Shown in pieces: positions 2,548 through 10,662 of a stretch of 10,662 bases of DNA; the stretch's first letter is position 1, and each line of letters starts with the position of its first letter. The notes under the pieces are model-generated. The model made no database searches. It was not told the origin of the DNA and was given only the letters and a program-made list of their open reading frames with translations. The translations under genes were made by a program, and so were the position numbers. Where the stretch lies: IMG/VR virus record IMGVR_UViG_2737471860_000005, one strand, 5' to 3'. This stretch comes from a virus (Duplodnaviria > Heunggongvirae > Uroviricota > Caudoviricetes).

Positions 2548-4980
2548 TTACAGCATATGTTCAGTACGAGCGATGATATCGTCCTGAGCGTCTGGAGAGA
2601 GCGCGGTGAAGAAGGCGGAATAACCCGCGACACGCACTACCAGATCGCGGTACTGATCCGGATGTTTTTTCGCCTCCAGCAGCGTTTCGCGGGAAACGAT
2701 GTTGTACTGAATATGCCAGCCTTTATGCACCTCGAAGAAGGTGCGCAGCAGGATCATCAGCTTCTGCTTGTCAGATTCGTTCTCCAGCGTTGCCGGATTC
2801 AGTTTCTGGTTGAGCAACACGCCGCCGAGAATCGCTGCCGTAGGCAGTTTACCCACCGAGCCAATGACCGCAGTAGGGCCGAGATGGTCAGTACCAGAGG
2901 CCGGACTAGCGCCTTCTGCCAGCGGGGTGTGGGCTTTACGCCCGTCCGGCGTTGCCATAGTTTGCGCGCCAAACGGTACGTTAGCGGAGATAGATGACGT
3001 ACCCGCGTAATAGTTGCCGCCAACCGGACCACGACCGTAGCGCGGATTATGGTACTGTTTCAGTTCGTCGATATAGGTCTGATAAGCGCGAGCCAGCAGC
3101 GTATCGACAGTATCATCGTCGTTGCCGTACTTCGGCGCACCGTTAATCAGCCGCTGACGCAGTTGCTCATGAGTCAGGCCATCGAAGTCATCCGCCAGTG
3201 CGGCAGCCAGCTGTTGCTGACCAATCGCGCCCTGTTCAAATACCAGTTTCTTCACTGCCGCCAGGCTGTTGCCGAGGTTGGCAATGCCAACCTGCAGGCC
3301 AGAAACCCAGTCATATTTCGCGCCGCCTTGCTTGATACTTTTCGCTCGCTCAATACAGTCATCCACCAGCGCCGAGCAGAGAATATCGTGCACGTTCTCT
3401 TCCAGCATGGTGTCGACGACATATTCGATTTCGATTGATTTACGCGTGTAATAACGGATTTGCGTATCCCACGCGTCCATTACTTCATCGAAATTGTTAA
3501 AGTTGCCTGCCGACAACGCTTTTTCTTGTGGCAGGAACACTTTGCCGCTGGTGGCATCACGCCCGCCTTCCAGCGCCGCCAGCATCACGCGGGCGAAGTT
3601 GATAAAGCTCATGCCGGTACAGCGATAGCCCCATTTGCCACCGACGGCGGTTTCGATACAACCAATCGCTGCGTAGTCGTAAGCGTCCTGCGGTTCAATA
3701 CCGAGTTTAATAAATTCCGGGATCACGATTTCGTCGTTGTTGAACGCCGGCATCCCGAAGCCGCAACGGATCACCTGTACGCAGGCGTCGAGGAAATCAT
3801 TACTCATTCCTGCATGGTAACGCACGCTGAGGTTAGGCTGAGTGGAACGCAGGCGACCGCAGGATTCGAGGATCGCGTAAGAGAGGGGATTCACTGCATC
3901 CATTGGTTGACCATCAACCAGATTTTGTCCGCCAATGGTAACGTTCTGATACAGCGGACTTCCCGCAGAGGCTTTTGAGTGTGAGCCGGAGCGGATCTTG
4001 TTCACTTCCAGCAGTTTCAGCCAGCAGCTATGTAGCATCTCGATGGCGTGTTCGCGATCCAGCGTCTGGTTGAGTTCAACGTCGCGGCGATAGTACGGGT
4101 AGAGATACTGGTCCATACGACCAAACGATACCGAGTGACCGTTAGATTCGATCTGCAAAATCAATTGGATGAAGTAACACAGTTGCAGCGCCTGCCAGAA
4201 AGTCTGCGGCGGCTGGTGGGCGATAAGATCGCAGTTTTCTGCCATCGTCAGCAGTTCATCGCGACGGCTTTCGCGAGTTTCGGTAGCAGCCATTTCACGC
4301 GCCAGGGCAGCGAAACGTTCAATGTGTTCACTGACTGCCACCAGCACGATATCAATCGCTTTCAGGAATTGTTCGCCATGTAAATCTTCCAGCACCGTCA
4401 GATTGATGCGCGAGCGACGTTCCGCTACTTTCTCACGCAGACCATCAAGACCTTTTTCCAGCAGCAGCGGGAAATTCACCGCCAGGTGCGCATCGCCGGA
4501 GGTCATATTGCCTTCCGCTTTAATGATTCCGGTCGCCAGCAGACCTTTTTGCTCATCGGTAAACATGCCGTAGCAGCGATCCTGTACGGTCTGACCGCGC
4601 CACCACGGGCACACTTCATGCAGAACGCGTTTGTTCTCTTCGCTCACCGCAAAGCCAGCACCGGGACGATCTGCCAGATCATCAATCTCTTTTTCGATCC
4701 ACGAGACAGTATATTCCGGGAAGATCGGCGCGGCGCGAACTTCGCTTGCCTGGTTGCCAATGATCAACTCATCGTGTTTGATCCAGATGGTGCGATTCGC
4801 CAGGTGATGCGCCAGTGCCAGCGCGCGACGTACCGGGATCGGCTTATCGAGATGTTGTTGATACATCTCGGTATAGTGCTGCGCGCGCTCGGTACAGACT
4901 GGCGGTTTCACAATATGCACCAGCGCATTTTTGTGCGCTTTAATGCGGTCGCTGAGCGTGTCCAGTTTCAGTGTGGTCAT
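2548..4980 (-). CDS. ybiW: Glycyl-radical enzyme of the pyruvate formate-lyase family (YbiW/PflF)
   Basis: 810-aa ORF with a C-terminal glycyl-radical signature (VVRVAGYSAFF) about 30 residues from the end; the size and motif fit PFL-family glycyl-radical enzymes. Its ATG (4978-4980) sits 6 nt after the ybiY stop with GAGGA inside the end of ybiY, suggesting translational coupling. Confidence 0.88.
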   Translation of the reverse strand: MTTLKLDTLSDRIKAHKNALVHIVKPPVCTERAQHYTEMYQQHLDKPIPVRRALALAHHLANRTIWIKHDELIIGNQASEVRAAPIFPEYTVSWIEKEIDDLADRPGAGFAVSEENKRVLHEVCPWWRGQTVQDRCYGMFTDEQKGLLATGIIKAEGNMTSGDAHLAVNFPLLLEKGLDGLREKVAERRSRINLTVLEDLHGEQFLKAIDIVLVAVSEHIERFAALAREMAATETRESRRDELLTMAENCDLIAHQPPQTFWQALQLCYFIQLILQIESNGHSVSFGRMDQYLYPYYRRDVELNQTLDREHAIEMLHSCWLKLLEVNKIRSGSHSKASAGSPLYQNVTIGGQNLVDGQPMDAVNPLSYAILESCGRLRSTQPNLSVRYHAGMSNDFLDACVQVIRCGFGMPAFNNDEIVIPEFIKLGIEPQDAYDYAAIGCIETAVGGKWGYRCTGMSFINFARVMLAALEGGRDATSGKVFLPQEKALSAGNFNNFDEVMDAWDTQIRYYTRKSIEIEYVVDTMLEENVHDILCSALVDDCIERAKSIKQGGAKYDWVSGLQVGIANLGNSLAAVKKLVFEQGAIGQQQLAAALADDFDGLTHEQLRQRLINGAPKYGNDDDTVDTLLARAYQTYIDELKQYHNPRYGRGPVGGNYYAGTSSISANVPFGAQTMATPDGRKAHTPLAEGASPASGTDHLGPTAVIGSVGKLPTAAILGGVLLNQKLNPATLENESDKQKLMILLRTFFEVHKGWHIQYNIVSRETLLEAKKHPDQYRDLVVRVAGYSAFFTALSPDAQDDIIARTEHML

Positions 4981-4985
4981 GGTTG

Positions 4986-5340
4986 TTATCCTCGTAAGGT
5001 CGCGGTTAACCCTTTCTGGCAGGCATACTGCTGGGCAAAGTCGAGCAGTTCTGGCGCATCAAGCGGTTTTTCCGGGGCGTCATAGGGCAGATTAAGTAAG
5101 TGATATTTGTTGATGCCCAGCGTGTGGTAGGGCAGAAAATGAATTTCGCCAACGTGCAGCTCGTCGGCGGCAAAATCGGTAATGGCTTTTACAGAGGTTT
5201 CGTCGGCATTAAAGCCCTGAATCAGCGGCACGCGGATAATGATTTTTTTGCCCGCTGCGGCGAGTTTTTTCAGGTTATCCAGCACCCTGGCGGCGTTACC
5301 GTCGGTCCACTGTTTAAACGGCGCGTCGGCAACGTGTTTT
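4986..5340 (-). pseudogene. ybiY: 3' fragment of the glycyl-radical-enzyme activating enzyme gene ybiY (pflE), truncated by prophage insertion
   Basis: The reading frame ending at stop 4986-4988 (...[28 protein letters not shown]...) runs upstream without an ATG to about 5340, where composition switches abruptly to AT-rich phage-end sequence and a stop appears at 5349-5351. The N-terminal part, which should carry the radical-SAM CxxxCxxC motif, is absent from this window. The activase identity rests on gene order next to ybiW and on memory. Confidence 0.75.
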
Positions 5341-5359
5341 AAATATGACTAGGTAATTT

Positions 5360-5491
5360 ATTCAAGATAACCGGGAAAAGATTAAAAAAGACGGGATTTG
5401 ATGGGATTCAATAAGTTAGGTACTGAACGCATTCAAGATAAAACGTACCGAAAACGCTCAACGCCTCGGGAACGATAAAACATTCAAGATA
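5360..5491 (+). repeat. attL transposase-binding-site repeats (L1-L3-like)
   Basis: Three direct copies of the 10-bp core ATTCAAGATA at 5360-5369, 5431-5440 and 5482-5491. The middle copy continues AAAACGTACCGAAAAC, resembling the MuA end-binding consensus that ends in CGAAAA. Confidence 0.6.
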
Positions 5492-5542
5492 GGCGCGCCG
5501 TGTATTTTAAGCCTTTTAAGACATTTCAAAAACATCAGTATG

Positions 5543-5610
5543 GCCTTTAAAAAAGAATTTTAAAGGCACCATGAAGGCAGGTCAATGAAGTTAACCTGCC
5601 TTCGTTTTTA
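5543..5610. terminator. Tandem hairpins at the 3' end of the repressor gene; intrinsic-terminator-like on the plus strand
   Basis: Hairpin A: 10-bp inverted repeat GCCTTTAAAA/TTTTAAAGGC (5543-5552 and 5558-5567), 5-nt loop. Hairpin B: 9-bp stem GAAGGCAGG/CCTGCCTTC (5573-5581 and 5595-5603), 13-nt loop that contains the c stop codon, followed on the plus strand by GTTTTTA (5604-5610). Confidence 0.4.
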
Positions 5611-6106
5611 CACTCTCTGAGAGAATACTAGCTTCAATCTCCGCCAAAATCTCTCTGACTTGCTCGTCGGGCATATCGACCAGCATCAACGCAGCTAGGC
5701 GTTTACGGCCCTCCAGTTGCAGCAATTCTTGATTTTCCTTATCTAACAAGCGTAGCACGGTCTCAACACCTTTCCTTGCGAGCATGTTGGTTAGGGCCTC
5801 TCGTTCCTCATTGGTAAGAAACGAGAGCATTTCAATTAGCTGATCGCCTTGGCTTAAATTACTTTGTAATTCTTGTGTTTTTGGTGAATTTCCGTTACCT
5901 GTTTTTAACCATTCAAGACTAACGCCTTCACTTTCTGCAATGCGTACCAATATGCTTTCACGAGGCTCTGGTGTGTTTCCCTTTTTAAAATAGCTTTGTA
6001 ACGTGTTGATATTTATTCCCCAAGCTCTGGCGGCAGCACTTCTTGATGGATATCGCCTAATAAGATAGGCCATGCGCTCTACGATAGGTTCTTTTGCCTG
6101 CTCCAT
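5591..6106 (-). CDS. c: Prophage repressor (Mu c-like C-terminal region, HTH N-terminal domain)
   Basis: 171-aa ORF transcribed divergently from ner, with GGAGG 7 nt upstream of the ATG. The N-terminal region looks like a helix-turn-helix (SRSAAARAWGININTLQSY). The C-terminal segment LAALMLVDMPDEQVREILAEIE resembles the Mu repressor C-terminal region as I recall it. Position and orientation match Mu c. Confidence 0.7.
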   Translation of the reverse strand: MEQAKEPIVERMAYLIRRYPSRSAAARAWGININTLQSYFKKGNTPEPRESILVRIAESEGVSLEWLKTGNGNSPKTQELQSNLSQGDQLIEMLSFLTNEEREALTNMLARKGVETVLRLLDKENQELLQLEGRKRLAALMLVDMPDEQVREILAEIEASILSESVKTKAG

Positions 6107-6297
6107 AAAAGTACCTCCAGGTATTTTTCTGCTTAAAGGTTCTTTTCTATCTATCTAATTGAATAGAAATGAAATCTTAAAAAACCAATAAAAATACAAA
6201 AAATACCTTGAATAGGTACTTTTTGTGATCTACGATTTTATTCACTCGGATATCCGCGCGAATATCCGAGCGGGTAATTTTGTAGGGTAAAGGAAAG
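6107..6297. promoter_or_regulatory. Divergent early control region (Pc/Pe promoters and operators; possible enhancer)
   Basis: 191-bp AT-rich intergenic region between divergent c and ner. It contains two copies of TTGAATAG (6159-6166 and 6208-6215), the partial palindrome AAAATACC-N7-GGTACTTTT (6200-6224), A-tracts, and a possible rightward promoter TTGAAT (6208-6213), 17-bp spacer, TACGAT (6231-6236). It lies about 770-960 bp from the left end, comparable to the Mu operator/enhancer position. Confidence 0.5.
6245..6270. promoter_or_regulatory. Palindromic operator-like site upstream of ner
   Basis: CTCGGATAT-CCGCGCGA-ATATCCGAG: 9-bp perfect inverted arms. The left arm contains the self-complementary 10-mer CGGATATCCG (6247-6256), and the half-site ATATCCG recurs 12 bp later (6262-6268). 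It sits 28-52 bp upstream of the ner ATG, just downstream of the putative early promoter -10. Confidence 0.45.
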
Positions 6298-6549
6298 ATG
6301 AGACAAAGAGAAGATAGTGGCCGCGATTGGCCTTCGCTGATGATTCAGCAGGCACTCAAAGATAATGGGTGGTCTTCCTTTCGGGAGCTTTCACTCCATG
6401 CAGGTTATGCTCAGGATTCACTGAAAGCGGTAGTTCGTACACCAAACAAAAAATACGAACGCGTTATTTCTGACGCTATAGGTGTCCCGCCAGAAGTCAT
6501 CTGGCCCAGCCGATACCGTAATGATGGAATAATCAGGAAGGCGTCGTGA
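6298..6549 (+). CDS. ner: Ner-like DNA-binding early regulator
   Basis: 83-aa ORF with AAGGAAAG upstream. It contains RDW near the N-terminus and PEVIWPSRY near the C-terminus, both matching phage Mu Ner and the Ner/Nlp family as I recall them. It is the first gene of the rightward early operon. Confidence 0.8.
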   Translation: MRQREDSGRDWPSLMIQQALKDNGWSSFRELSLHAGYAQDSLKAVVRTPNKKYERVISDAIGVPPEVIWPSRYRNDGIIRKAS

Positions 6550-6550
6550 T

Positions 6551-8647
6551 ATGCAGTCGTACGTTACCGTAAATGACCTGCTCGGTGTTCCTGGAATGCC
6601 AGCCACAGCAAAAGGCATCCGACAGGCGTTACAGCGTTTTTCTCGTGGTCTTGGTGACATGAGCCGCCGTAGGGAAGGCTCAAAAGCCATTGAGTACCAC
6701 ATTGATTGCCTACCGGAAATAACACAAAAGGCACTACGTGAACGTTATGTGGAACAACTAGTAGCTACGGAGAACAACGTTTCTGAAGTAAAAGCTGTTA
6801 CTAGGAAGACACGTAATCCCGATGCTGTTCAGGCGATCGAAGCATATCGCGGTTCTCCGCAACTGATGGAAGAACGCCTGAATGCACTTACCGAAAACCA
6901 GCGTCGGGTATCTGAAGCAAGGGCAGCGCTGGTGGTGGAAGTGCTGAAGCTGGAAAGCGCCGGTAACATCGGGCGACTGAAAGCCATTAACTTTCTTGTT
7001 GAAAAGGCTCGTAAAGACGAGCTGCCAGAGCGACTGCAACAGGCCGCGATTAACGCCAATGCAAAACGTGGCGCTAATCGCACTATCAGCCGTGATCCGC
7101 TTTACCAGTGGGTACTGAAATACAACCAGTCGCGGAATGCCGCAGAACGACTGCTGTTACTGGCACCAGGTAAACGTGACGAAATAAAACCGGAAGAAAT
7201 TAGCTGGCTACCTGAATTTCTGGCGCAGTATCGCCAGGTGAACGGCAGACCTATGTCTGAAGCCTACGAGGATTTTGTCGCGGAATGGCAGCGTCGCCAT
7301 GCAGACGAACCGTACATGCTGGAGGTGATGCCCTCTTACGATGTGGTTCGTTATGCCATGAAGAAATTGCCGGAAGTGGTGAAACAAAAAGGACGCGTTA
7401 CCGGCAGTGAATACCGTCAGCTTGAAGGATTCACCCGTCGCAACTGGACCGCTATGCCGGTGAATTATGTCTGGATTGGTGACGGTCACGGTATGAAGCT
7501 GAAATGTGCGCATCCGATCCACGGGCGTCCATTCTCACCAGAAGTCACGTTTGTGATCGATGGTGGAACACGGTTTGTTGTTGGCTGGAGTCTTGACCTT
7601 GCCGAGAACGTGTTCGCCGTTGCCGGTGCAATACAGCACGGCATTCGTAACCACGGAAAACCGTTCCTGTATTACTCGGATAACGGTTCCGGTGAAACGG
7701 CAGATATGCTGGATAAAGAGATTGTCGGGATTCTGCCCCGTCTGGGCATTAACCACCCCACCGGTATTGCGGGAAATCCACAGGGACGCGGCATTATTGA
7801 ACGCCTGAACCGGACGCTGCCGATGCGTATAGCCAGGAAGTATCGCACCTATTTTGGCAAGGGTGCTGACCGGGAATCATTGCGTGTGCTCAATCGCGAT
7901 CTGCGTTCAGCATTTAATGCCCTGCAACAGGACAAACCGCTGAATGCTCGCCAGAAATCTGCAATGCGTGAGCTGCCATCATGGACAGAACTTATCGAGG
8001 CTATTCGTGAAGGTGTGGAATGGTACAACAACCGCCCACATTCTGAGCTGCCGATGAAACCTGACGGACGGCATTACAGCCCGGCAGAATTCAGAAAAAA
8101 ACGCCTGGCAGAAGAAGACACCGAAATTGAGTGGCTGAGTGATCTTGAGCTGCGCGACATGTTCCGCCCGATGGTGGAACGGCCTGTAAGACGGTGCGAA
8201 ATTCAGTGGCTGAACAATATTTACTACGCGCCGGAATTGCGTGACGAACACGGCCGCAAAGTTCTTATCAGTTATGACATTCATGACGCAGAGCGAATTA
8301 CGGTACGCCGTAAAGACGGCAGCTTTATTTGTGAGGCGATATGGAACGGCAATAAACGCGCAGCCTTTCCTGTCACGGCTGAATATCACAAACAACAGCA
8401 GCGTATTAAAGGAATGCGCAAACGTGCTGAGGAAAAAATTCGTGATGCTGAAGATGAAGGTATCCAGATTCTGGAACACAAACAGTCTGAACCATGTCTG
8501 GATAATGTTTATCGCCCGGTTGGTAATACGGTAACCGTCCAGCAACAGGATTATGAAGAGGATTACGACGAAGATTATAAACGCGATTTCTGGCTGGGTT
8601 TGCAGAAACTTGCAGCCATACAGGAACAGGATGATCCGCTGGCCTGA
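6551..8647 (+). CDS. A: Mu A-like DDE transposase
   Basis: 698-aa ORF starting 1 nt after the ner stop (TGAtATG). The N-terminal motif GSKAIEYHIDCLP resembles the MuA/Mu-repressor winged-helix motif (GVKGGKAIEY). Candidate catalytic residues are D311 (WIGDGH), D377 (YYSDNGS) and E417 (IIERLNRTL), followed by WYNNRPHSEL, typical of a retroviral-integrase-type core. Confidence 0.88.
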   Translation: MQSYVTVNDLLGVPGMPATAKGIRQALQRFSRGLGDMSRRREGSKAIEYHIDCLPEITQKALRERYVEQLVATENNVSEVKAVTRKTRNPDAVQAIEAYRGSPQLMEERLNALTENQRRVSEARAALVVEVLKLESAGNIGRLKAINFLVEKARKDELPERLQQAAINANAKRGANRTISRDPLYQWVLKYNQSRNAAERLLLLAPGKRDEIKPEEISWLPEFLAQYRQVNGRPMSEAYEDFVAEWQRRHADEPYMLEVMPSYDVVRYAMKKLPEVVKQKGRVTGSEYRQLEGFTRRNWTAMPVNYVWIGDGHGMKLKCAHPIHGRPFSPEVTFVIDGGTRFVVGWSLDLAENVFAVAGAIQHGIRNHGKPFLYYSDNGSGETADMLDKEIVGILPRLGINHPTGIAGNPQGRGIIERLNRTLPMRIARKYRTYFGKGADRESLRVLNRDLRSAFNALQQDKPLNARQKSAMRELPSWTELIEAIREGVEWYNNRPHSELPMKPDGRHYSPAEFRKKRLAEEDTEIEWLSDLELRDMFRPMVERPVRRCEIQWLNNIYYAPELRDEHGRKVLISYDIHDAERITVRRKDGSFICEAIWNGNKRAAFPVTAEYHKQQQRIKGMRKRAEEKIRDAEDEGIQILEHKQSEPCLDNVYRPVGNTVTVQQQDYEEDYDEDYKRDFWLGLQKLAAIQEQDDPLA

Positions 8648-8655
8648 ATAAAAAA

Positions 8656-8677
8656 ACAGTCCGCGGAAACGGACTGT
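8656..8677 (+). other. Stem-loop in the A-B intergenic region
   Basis: 8-bp perfect inverted repeat ACAGTCCG/CGGACTGT with a 6-nt loop, 9 nt after the A stop and 44 nt before the B ATG. It has no U-tract, so it is not a classical terminator; it could be an RNA stability or processing element or a partial attenuator. Confidence 0.35.
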
Positions 8678-8720
8678 TAAACAAAGGAAACAAAGCTGAT
8701 TTGAATAAACGGAGAATAAT

Positions 8721-9650
8721 ATGACCGATATTAATGATGTTTTCAATACGATTAGCTCACTGATTACTGACAGCGTAAAAACTCAGAGCGTTATTGCTAA
8801 AGAGGCAGGCGTGTCAGAGGCCACACTCTCGGAACTCCGCAAAGGTCGTTACAAAGGCGATACCGAAGGGATGCATGACAAATTACTGATGTGGTATCAG
8901 GCCTGGCAGAAAAGCCAGGAATTACCAGGCGCACCGCAACTTGTGGAAACACAAACCCTGCGTGATTTGCGTGAACTGTTCCAGACGGTGCGTGTTATGG
9001 GGTGTATCAGCGTTCTGGTTGGTGTGCCGGGGGTAGGAAAAACCGTTGCAGCCCGTGAATACAGTAATCGGGTATCTAATACCTGGATGGTGACCCTTTC
9101 CCCTGCACACTCAACGGTGACTGAATGTCTGCTGGAACTGGCAGACGCGCTGGGAATTGATAATCCGCAAAGGAATAAAGGTGCACTGACCCGTGCCATT
9201 CGCAAAAAACTGAATGGTACACGCGGTCTGGTTATTGTGGATGAAGCTGACCACCTGAGCATTGACGGGCTGGAACAATTACGTGCCATTCAGGATGCCA
9301 CCGGAGTCGGGATGGTATTGATTGGTAACCCCAGCCAGTTAGCCAAAGCCACACATCGGGGAACGGATGACCTTGCACGTTTGTTCAGTCGTTTCGCCAT
9401 GACAAAGCAACTACGTAAAGCCAAAAAGGCTGACGTGGTGGCAATTGCAAAAGCCTGGGGCATTGAGGGCGAAGATGAATTATCACTCATGCAGAGTATC
9501 GCGGAAAAACCAGGTGCATTACGTGTATTAACTCATACGTTGAATCAGGCGTGGCTGGCAGCCAGCGGGAAAGGCGTTCCTCTGTCCAAAGACTACATTA
9601 AAGCGGCTTTTAAAGAGGTTTACAGCAACCCGAAATTACTGAACTGGTAA
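8721..9650 (+). CDS. B: Mu B-like AAA+ ATPase (target DNA activator)
   Basis: 309-aa ORF with Walker A GVPGVGKT (residues 101-108) and Walker B LVIVDEAD (about 170-177), plus an N-terminal HTH-like segment (SVIAKEAGVSEATLSELRKG). It lies immediately downstream of the transposase, as in Mu. Confidence 0.85.
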   Translation: MTDINDVFNTISSLITDSVKTQSVIAKEAGVSEATLSELRKGRYKGDTEGMHDKLLMWYQAWQKSQELPGAPQLVETQTLRDLRELFQTVRVMGCISVLVGVPGVGKTVAAREYSNRVSNTWMVTLSPAHSTVTECLLELADALGIDNPQRNKGALTRAIRKKLNGTRGLVIVDEADHLSIDGLEQLRAIQDATGVGMVLIGNPSQLAKATHRGTDDLARLFSRFAMTKQLRKAKKADVVAIAKAWGIEGEDELSLMQSIAEKPGALRVLTHTLNQAWLAASGKGVPLSKDYIKAAFKEVYSNPKLLNW

Positions 9651-9661
9651 TAGGGTGATAA

Positions 9662-9892
9662 ATGATGATGTCACGAAATATAAAAATGGCAACGGATGCG
9701 CAGCACTGGTTACAGGCGCGCGGAAGTCACGTAAATGAATCATATATCGGCGTGGCACGCCCGATTCTTGAAATCACTTATCCACCTGTTGAACTGGTAA
9801 AAAACGCGGTCAGGATTATGGAGCATAAATCAGGTATTGCCCGTTCTGTATGGACGACACGTCTTAATGGTTGCCAGATTATCTGGAGATAA
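9662..9892 (+). CDS. Small early protein of unknown function (occupies the Mu kil position)
   Basis: 76-aa ORF beginning 12 nt after the B stop. Three consecutive ATGs (9662, 9665, 9668) follow GGGTGA, so the true start is probably 9665 or 9668. No motif recognised; assignment is by synteny only. Confidence 0.5.
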
Positions 9893-9894
9893 CG

Positions 9895-10125
9895 ATGTGT
9901 ATTAAAGCTGAAAAATATATTGAATGGGTTAAACACTGTCAGCACCACAGAGTACCGTTGACGACATATAAATGCCCTGGATGTGGTGAACAGATTATGA
10001 CGCAATGCTCACCAGAAAAGGAAATTCGGGATTCTCTGACATGTTGTCCTTGGTGTAGTGCAGTTTTCTTTAAACAGGTACAAGGTGCGAAGGTAAAAGC
10101 CAGCGTAGTTATTCAGAATCAATAA
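9895..10125 (+). CDS. Small zinc-ribbon protein (CxxC...CxxC) of unknown function
   Basis: The ORF track gives a TTG-forced start at 9871, but ATG 9895-9897 has GGAG 6 nt upstream, overlapping the previous stop. The 76-aa product carries CPGC (residues 26-29) and CCPWC (49-53) plus further Cys/His residues (HCQHH), a typical small zinc-ribbon arrangement. Confidence 0.55.
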   Translation: MCIKAEKYIEWVKHCQHHRVPLTTYKCPGCGEQIMTQCSPEKEIRDSLTCCPWCSAVFFKQVQGAKVKASVVIQNQ

Positions 10126-10136
10126 GGAGAAGCAAA

Positions 10137-10400
10137 ATGGCAAAAGTAATTATTGAAATTAAAAATACAGTATCTGGAATTAAAGGACGGAATTTGTGCA
10201 CCAGCATTGCGGTGGACGGTAGTGCGGAACTGGACGGTGATGAGGGTACACTCGCTGGCATGGTGGCGTTACTGGTGCTTAATAAAAGCCAGAAAATAAT
10301 TAATGAGTCAGCTCATGAAGCTATTGAGATTTTGAAAAACGATGGTGTCATCACCGGTGGCCGTGTCACTGAAATGGCTGTTGAAAAAACATGCCACTGA
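10137..10400 (+). CDS. Hypothetical small early protein
   Basis: 87-aa ORF with a strong AGGAG 7 nt upstream of the ATG, starting 11 nt after the previous stop; same strand and tight packing with its neighbours. No motif recognised. Confidence 0.5.
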   Translation: MAKVIIEIKNTVSGIKGRNLCTSIAVDGSAELDGDEGTLAGMVALLVLNKSQKIINESAHEAIEILKNDGVITGGRVTEMAVEKTCH

Positions 10401-10414
10401 AAGGAACGCTGACA

Positions 10415-10657
10415 ATGAACGTCAAAATCCGAAATGAAATTCAGGCATTAATCCGAATTCAGGAACGCAATAACAACGGTGGTGAATTACGCGAGTTTAT
10501 TTGTGCGCGTGAAGTTGATGGTTATGGTGAAAAAACTTACCTGATAGCTTTTGACCATTACAGCATCTGTGCGCGTTATTGCGGTGAAAGCATTTCCAGC
10601 GCCATTGCGTTTGGCGGTGCGTTCAACGTGGATTTATGGGAATACGGGCTTTGTTGA
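10415..10657 (+). CDS. Hypothetical small early protein
   Basis: The ORF reaches stop 10655-10657. I prefer the start at ATG 10415 (AGGA 9 nt upstream, product MNVKIRNEIQ..., 80 aa). The track's alternative, ATG 10391, overlaps the previous gene by 10 bp and lacks a clear ribosome-binding site. Contains several Cys residues; no motif recognised. Confidence 0.45.
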   Translation: MNVKIRNEIQALIRIQERNNNGGELREFICAREVDGYGEKTYLIAFDHYSICARYCGESISSAIAFGGAFNVDLWEYGLC

Positions 10658-10662
10658 ATAAA

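Follow-up and report, generated by a model that had tools for sequence, protein, structure and literature searches.

The ybiY gene of the Escherichia coli strain analysed here is interrupted by a Mu-like prophage. The reading that best accounts for the locus, to which we assign a probability of about 0.93, is that a transposable prophage of Mu architecture (approximately 36–37 kb) was inserted into ybiY by DDE transposition with a 4-bp duplication, leaving ybiY destroyed and ybiW cut off. The stretch of DNA examined (the window) is the entire 10,662-bp contig JWZI01000080.1 of the draft E. coli assembly GCA_000818995.1, and contig 40 of SRR2239602 (Logan assembly) is identical to it across all 10,662 bases. 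SRR2239602 is assumed to be the same isolate as GCA_000818995.1, and both junction contigs described below come from SRR2239602.

In the mechanism we propose, the prophage would have entered chromosomal ybiY, which encodes the radical-SAM activase of YbiW, at codon 181–182, duplicating 4 bp. Codons 1–182 and the promoter region beside fsa lie at the right end of the phage, and a promoterless 3′ remnant of ybiY, followed by intact ybiW–ybiV–ybiU, at its left end. The ybiY promoter, which is active under anaerobic conditions, would then no longer serve ybiW, YbiW protein would be without its cognate activase even where some was produced, and the strain would lose its anaerobic, YbiW-dependent use of 1,5-anhydroglucitol. 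Transcripts of the phage repressor gene run toward ybiW, and would meet two hairpins and about 600 nt of untranslated RNA; strong polarity is therefore to be expected.

The left junction was located with a 1.4-kb query spanning the site, which was compared with 5,426 complete E. coli genomes. All 5,426 match the query at 100% over its first 645 bases only, i.e. up to window position 5344, and none of them (0/5,426) carries the insertion, ybiY being uninterrupted there. The uninterrupted gene order in NZ_CP025892 is fsa, ybiY, ybiW, ybiV, ybiU, and the match to the window stops 542 nt into the 900-nt ybiY. The minus-strand frame at the junction encodes residues 182–299 of YbiY with complete identity and has stop codons a few bases into the foreign DNA; the GC content changes across the junction from about 0.55 on the host side to about 0.42 on the phage side. 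The border lies between positions 5343 and 5344. The first phage base (5344) is a T, by chance equal to the next host base, and it was placed by comparing ten independent left junctions and four prophages with both junctions. The preliminary description had ybiY ending abruptly at about 5340 (interval 5330–5355) against an AT-rich phage end, and had proposed aligning the flank to uninterrupted ybiY–ybiW loci; the break is within that interval, the alignment maps it to the nucleotide (5343/5344), all 5,426 genomes continue with ybiY, and end repeats and early phage genes run from 5344. The possibility raised there that 5340–5590 is native host DNA fails, in that none of the 5,426 complete genomes follows the window past 5344 at this locus. 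In NZ_CP025892 (strain 503025) ybiU is itself cut short by an IS3-family insertion (1–1736 of the compared locus), which is why identity of that genome to the window begins only at window position 520.

The reciprocal junction was sought in a protein collection through the exact 182-aa N-terminal YbiY sequence, which is present there. Contig 301 of SRR2239602 carries fsa, codons 1–182 of ybiY, a stop codon, three inverted copies of the phage end repeat, mom and com. The truncated ybiY on this contig (182 aa) stops at a TAA supplied by the phage end. Read in the sense of ybiY, with a slash marking the junction, the right junction (contig 301) is ...CTTGCCGATTTA / TAAAGCGCGAAAAATTATTCAAGATAG..., the left junction (window) is ...ACCTAGTCATA / TTTAAAACACG... 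and uninterrupted ybiY at the same site is ...CTTGCCGATTTAAAACACG.... Codons 1–182 carry the CX3CX2C motif and the ferredoxin-like cysteines and adjoin fsa, hence the native promoter region. The 3′ remnant in the window (4986–5343, minus strand) comprises nt 543–900 of ybiY, i.e. residues 182–299 and the stop codon, and is identical to the YbiY C-terminus. At the break this remnant lacks a start codon of its own; the longest ORF inside it begins at a GTG and spans 99 aa. No Pfam domain is detected in residues 182–299; uninterrupted YbiY is a 299-aa protein with Radical_SAM and Fer4_12 domains. A complete YbiY/PflE activase is not encoded at this locus, residues 1–182 and 182–299 lying at opposite ends of the prophage, and it is this arrangement that means ybiY is destroyed. 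The recovery of a reciprocal junction in a run whose left contig is 100% identical to the window also argues that the ybiY junction is neither chance nor artefact. What the preliminary description expected of the far side of the prophage, namely the N-terminal radical-SAM part with the operon promoter and a short direct duplication, is seen on contig 301, and with both halves present and the prophage between them its claim that a Mu-like prophage splits ybiY holds.

Two other candidates for breaks in ybiY were rejected. Contig ends appear to pile up at codon 180 (a cluster of 253 members, one contig having an N-run there), but the fragments span 59–189 aa, and the apparent pile-up arises because an exact 180-aa look-up selects contigs ending there by construction. 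Contig NODE_1797 of ERZ13616375, which encodes a 182-aa YbiY and was considered as a junction or excision scar, has a ybiY that is continuous except that codon 183 has become a stop by point mutation (AAA to TAA); it was retrieved because the look-up was by exact sequence and the product is the same 182 aa. The change lies at 9350–9370 of this E. coli metagenome contig, which thus represents an independent natural ybiY null.

On the host side of the break the window holds three genes, all on the minus strand: ybiW (2548–4980; glycyl-radical enzyme, 810 aa; Pfam PFL-like 1.8e-209, Gly_radical 1.6e-32), ybiV (1587–2402; sugar phosphatase of the HAD family; Pfam Hydrolase_3 1.3e-53), which has its counterpart at the homologous position in NZ_CP025892, and, downstream of the locus, ybiU (170–1435; Gig2-like protein, 421 aa; Pfam PF07350 2.3e-154; gene call from the source assembly). 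ybiW is intact. It encodes a full-length glycyl-radical enzyme, identical to that of NZ_CP025892 at 810/810 aa, with the GCIETAVGG cysteine loop and the RVAGYS glycine motif. The locus resembles ybiY–ybiW (pflE–pflF) of E. coli K-12 in its genes (fsa, ybiY, ybiW, ybiV, ybiU) and in its identical YbiW sequence; it differs in that ybiY of the window strain is split after codon 182 and the prophage parts ybiW from the ybiY promoter.

YbiW is described in two recent reports as a 1,5-anhydroglucitol-6-phosphate C–O lyase of an anaerobic pathway (PMC13450708, PMC12441222, citing Ma et al., JACS 2024), and the same reports have its product cleaved by aldolases such as the product of the neighbouring fsa (PMC13450708, PMC12441222). 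Upstream of ybiY, the ybiYW operon is served by a promoter that is active anaerobically and repressed by YciT (bioRxiv 10.1101/2025.05.13.653802). In the window strain ybiW lies behind the promoterless 358-nt ybiY remnant, with the prophage between it and that promoter. The ybiY promoter now drives only a 182-residue fragment, which has the cluster-binding cysteines but lacks the remainder of the radical-SAM fold. The DNA itself establishes that the activase is lost; that ybiW expression and the YbiW-dependent 1,5-anhydroglucitol route are lost with it is what we infer. The preliminary description had likewise held that ybiW probably lacks its cognate activase and upstream promoter, in agreement with a ybiY that is split by the prophage and a promoter region that sits with fsa at the far end. 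The isolate is predicted to be unable to use 1,5-anhydroglucitol anaerobically via YbiW, and as a natural ybiY-null, ybiW-intact strain it offers a ready test of the need of YbiW for its own activase. On the host side the event is ordinary in kind, a transposable prophage having disrupted a non-essential operon by inserting into it; with many unrelated insertion sites in the phage family, it bears out the footprint of Mu-type insertional mutagenesis that had been proposed.

Whether ybiW is wholly silenced depends on the region between the phage end and the repressor gene c (5591–6106, minus strand). Two hairpins lie there (5543–5603; the inverted repeats I7 and I12), the first with a 10-bp AT-rich stem (5543–5567) and the second with a 13-bp stem over the stop codon of c (5573–5603). 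For the minus strand of the region the fold energy is −34.1 kcal/mol (z = −5.4); for the plus strand it is −31.8 kcal/mol (z = −5.1). A T-run (GTTTTT) follows the 5573–5603 hairpin on the plus strand only. In the direction of c the hairpin gives way instead to AUGGUGCC and then to the other, AT-rich hairpin, with no immediate U-run, so that it does not qualify as a canonical intrinsic terminator of c. Of the terminator-like structure at the 3′ end of c that was earlier thought to limit read-through, the stable 13-bp hairpin stands, but not as a canonical terminator for c. With its T-run on the plus strand, the 5573–5603 hairpin looks like a terminator for host-side transcription entering the phage, and it may serve to insulate the phage end rather than to terminate c. 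A promoter-like sequence, TTGACC-17-TAAAAT (minus strand, 5585–5557), overlaps the hairpins.

The only rival explanation of real weight concerns function, and bears on these same elements. It holds that ybiW is still expressed, either by read-through from the c promoter or from the 5585–5557 site, and that YbiW is activated by another activase, for example PflA or PflC, such that the pathway works. We regard this as unlikely, though less so than the other rivals considered. Read-through is helped by c and ybiW lying on the same strand with nothing else between them and by neither hairpin being followed by a T-run on that strand, but two stable hairpins (−34 kcal/mol) and about 600 untranslated nt separate the c stop from the ybiW start, an untranslated stretch of that length makes Rho-dependent polarity likely, and repressor promoters are weak in lysogens. 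The promoter-like site scores 10/12 and both of its hexamers are kept in an 86% identical relative, but it is a single match where chance predicts 2.5. As to activation, E. coli has PflA, PflC and other glycyl-radical activases, and cross-activation occurs among its glycyl-radical enzymes (PflA with TdcE and GrcA). Against this, activation of YbiW in vitro is poor even with its own partner, yielding 0.02 radicals per monomer (PMC13450708).

The inserted element itself has the left-end organization of Mu: a leftward repressor, then rightward ner, A, B and kil, with com and mom at the right end (Mom, PF25680, on contig 301 of SRR2239602). The c-like repressor (171 aa), transcribed toward the host junction, matches PHROG 3037 (transcriptional repressor, 2.1e-53) and, weakly, the helix-turn-helix of Pfam Phage_CI_repr; sequence comparison with Mu c gives no significant similarity. 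The divergent region between c and ner (6107–6297) is AT-rich (GC 0.37–0.40) with direct and inverted repeats (D2, I1, I4, I8, I15), and from its place between divergent repressor and ner it is presumed to hold the operators and the early promoter. The ner-like early regulator (6298–6549, plus strand; 83 aa; Pfam HTH_35 4.6e-14; PHROG 769) is 36% identical to Mu Ner. Transposase A (6551–8647, plus strand; 698 aa, DDE type) matches Pfam Mu-transpos_C (2.1e-18), HTH_Tnp_Mu_1 (1.7e-6) and, weakly, rve, as well as PHROG 310 (1e-193). It is a transposase of the MuA type at only 24% identity to MuA; in pairwise alignment NGDGY and IDN of the MuA core fall opposite GDGHG and SDN, the aspartates of which we take to be the catalytic residues. 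The nearest transposases are those of Yersinia phage vB_YpM_5 (81%), Pseudomonas phage VW-6B (48%) and Klebsiella phage Kp4852-3 (41.5%). Directly downstream of A is a MuB-like AAA+ transposition ATPase (8721–9650, plus strand; 309 aa; Pfam Phage-MuB_C 1.5e-23, AAA_22 8.2e-20), which shares 44% identity with MuB along its whole length. The stretch 9662–10662 (plus strand) comprises kil (PHROG 2743 Kil 1e-41) and the beginning of the semi-essential early region; it is 94% identical in nucleotide sequence to Mu 4307–5293, and from kil onward the phage DNA is 91–94% identical to Mu. This Mu-like DNA, together with a distant c–ner–A–B segment, indicates a mosaic in which a Mu backbone is joined to a transposition and immunity module unlike that of Mu. 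At 10662 the contig breaks off within the semi-essential region, which is 94% identical to Mu; a second Mu-like sequence in the same genome may have broken the assembly at this point. No Rfam RNA family was found anywhere in the window.

The same phage is found in SRR7221515 inside the 3′-terminal part of yfcG, a short way upstream of folX, with 0 mismatches over window 5344–10646 (5.3 kb). Ten different left flanks were obtained in all: seven from prophages that a viral-contig search for the left terminus brought up, and one each from the window, the yfcG copy and a relative in E. coli 06-00048. These ten flanks, together with the identical phage at yfcG/folX, support transposition without a fixed attachment site. 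In ybiY the insertion happened recently and is specific to this strain. The alternative that the element is a decayed, immobile remnant long fixed at ybiY draws on the fact that in this strain the prophage is seen only in its left 5.3 kb and its right ~1.3 kb, its completeness being judged from relatives. We consider it improbable: all five early genes are full length, with lengths that match those of the plaque-forming Yersinia phage vB_YpM_5, a copy without mismatch over 5.3 kb is present at another locus in another strain, and the insertion is absent from the 5,426 complete E. coli genomes. That the ybiY junction is a transposition product confined to part of a culture with replicating phage, or an assembly chimera, is the least probable reading: transposable phages do make many new junctions upon induction and the window is a short draft contig ending inside the phage, but two assemblies give the identical 10.66-kb contig with 5.3 kb on either side of the junction, a matching right-junction contig exists with the expected duplication, and a mixed population with appreciable intact ybiY would be expected to break de Bruijn contigs at the junction.

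The ends of the prophage and its target duplication both depart from Mu. The left end (attL-like, 5344–5500, plus strand) begins with the terminus 5′-TATGACTAGG and contains three direct ATTCAAGATA(A/G) repeats (5360–5370, 5431–5441 and 5482–5492). Three inverted copies of the ATTCAAGATA repeat stand at the right end, so that both ends carry multiple repeats in inverted orientation. As in Mu there are three such repeats per end; they are presumed transposase-binding sites, but their sequence is not the Mu consensus. The terminal ~110 nt and all three left repeats are kept in ten relatives with differing flanks. The first end repeat (TTATTCAAGATA) begins at position 15 from either terminus (window 5344–5370; contig 301 of SRR2239602, 1452–1480). 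The left terminus is TATGAC in 10/10 junctions (in reverse sense ...GTCATA, followed by variable sequence). For the right end, an exact 20-mer search gave no match, and a looser pattern gave mostly chance matches among the matches listed; right junctions were recovered with a degenerate 26-mer. The right terminus reads ...GCGCT(T/A)TA in all seven junctions, with variable bases beyond it (reverse sense TA(A/T)AGCGCG). The termini of the phage family are thus 5′-TA...TA-3′ (left TATGAC..., right ...GCGCTTTA), in contrast to the TG...CA of Mu.

Target duplications are exactly 4 bp in each of the four prophages for which both junctions are available (TTTA, TCCT, TATC and AAAG). At ybiY the left copy occupies 5340–5343 (TAAA on the plus strand, TTTA in the sense of ybiY; nt 543–546 of ybiY). 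Plus-strand reads, again with a slash at the junction, give ...GCCGATTTA / TAAAGCG for the right junction (contig 301 of SRR2239602), ...GTCATA / TTTAAAAC for the left and GCCGATTTAAAAC for the uninterrupted host. When the phage and one 4-bp copy are taken out, the reconstructed empty sites align along their whole length with uninterrupted E. coli genomes, one of them at 337/337 bases. The target duplication of Mu is 5 bp. A duplication of that length was considered at ybiY, where ATTTA is common to both junctions, and rejected, as the base beside GTCAT is the same in 10/10 left junctions and two other prophage pairs exclude 5 bp; a 5-bp duplication can be modelled in two ways, and neither fits more than two of the four pairs. 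The 5-bp target-site duplication that the preliminary description had anticipated is thus right in that a short duplication flanks the prophage and wrong in its size, which is 4 bp, read directly and with three other prophages in agreement.

Many unrelated insertion sites, a short target duplication and gene disruption are common to Mu and the ybiY phage, and to these likenesses are opposed the divergent transposition proteins, the repressor unrelated in sequence, the end repeats, the terminal dinucleotides and the length of the duplication. The closest sequenced relatives are the Yersinia phages vB_YpM_5 and vB_YpM_6 (Muvirus; PMC10434027), whose transposase is 81% identical and whose DNA, from the middle of A onward, matches at about 90% of nucleotides. 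Termini like those of the ybiY phage also appear in the vB_YpM_5 record, ...GCGCGCTTTA and TATGAAGAGG.... These phages differ from the ybiY phage in the immunity region, where the repressor and ner are each 47% identical, and in the internal end repeat, which is ATTTGATAC as against ATTCAAGATA. The vB_YpM report (PMC10434027) contains no analysis of ends or target duplications, and the accessible literature on these phages makes no mention of TA termini or of a 4-bp duplication. The D3112-like Pseudomonas phages (Casadabanvirus) have a transposase that can be aligned over 94% of its length at about 30% identity, better than MuA. They differ in an unrelated genome backbone and in a 5-bp stagger, as given in a figure legend of PMC5977238, compared with 4 bp in the ybiY phage.

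With a 4-bp duplication, against 5 bp in Mu and in D3112-type phages, the lineage of the ybiY phage appears to differ from both. On balance we favour, with some reserve, the view that it represents an undescribed enterobacterial lineage, with the structural backbone of Mu and a heterologous transposition and immunity module that would cleave at TA rather than CA and with a stagger of 4 rather than 5 bp. The family with TA termini is apparently functional, judging from its plaque-forming relative vB_YpM_5. If this view is right, the phage provides a naturally occurring variant of the Mu transpososome that differs in how ends are recognized and in target geometry. A TA-terminus, 4-bp family could be compared with MuA to learn what determines the required terminal dinucleotide and the strand-transfer stagger, and in this respect the transposition module, with its TA termini and 4-bp duplications, is of greater interest than the host knockout.

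The 86% relative in E. coli 06-00048 was considered for defining the ends and set aside for that purpose, because it has a Mu-type right end (TGAAGCGGCGCACG...), flanks from unrelated loci and a second copy on a plasmid. In this strain the left-end relative is present on the chromosome (NZ_CP015229, 1925157...) and on the 136-kb plasmid NZ_CP012497. The left flank of the chromosomal copy is plasmid-like DNA, and its Mu-type right end (TGAAGCGGCGCACG...) abuts a T6SS/Rhs locus; the arrangement looks like a phage-mediated replicon fusion, a recombinant of two Mu-like prophages or an assembly problem.
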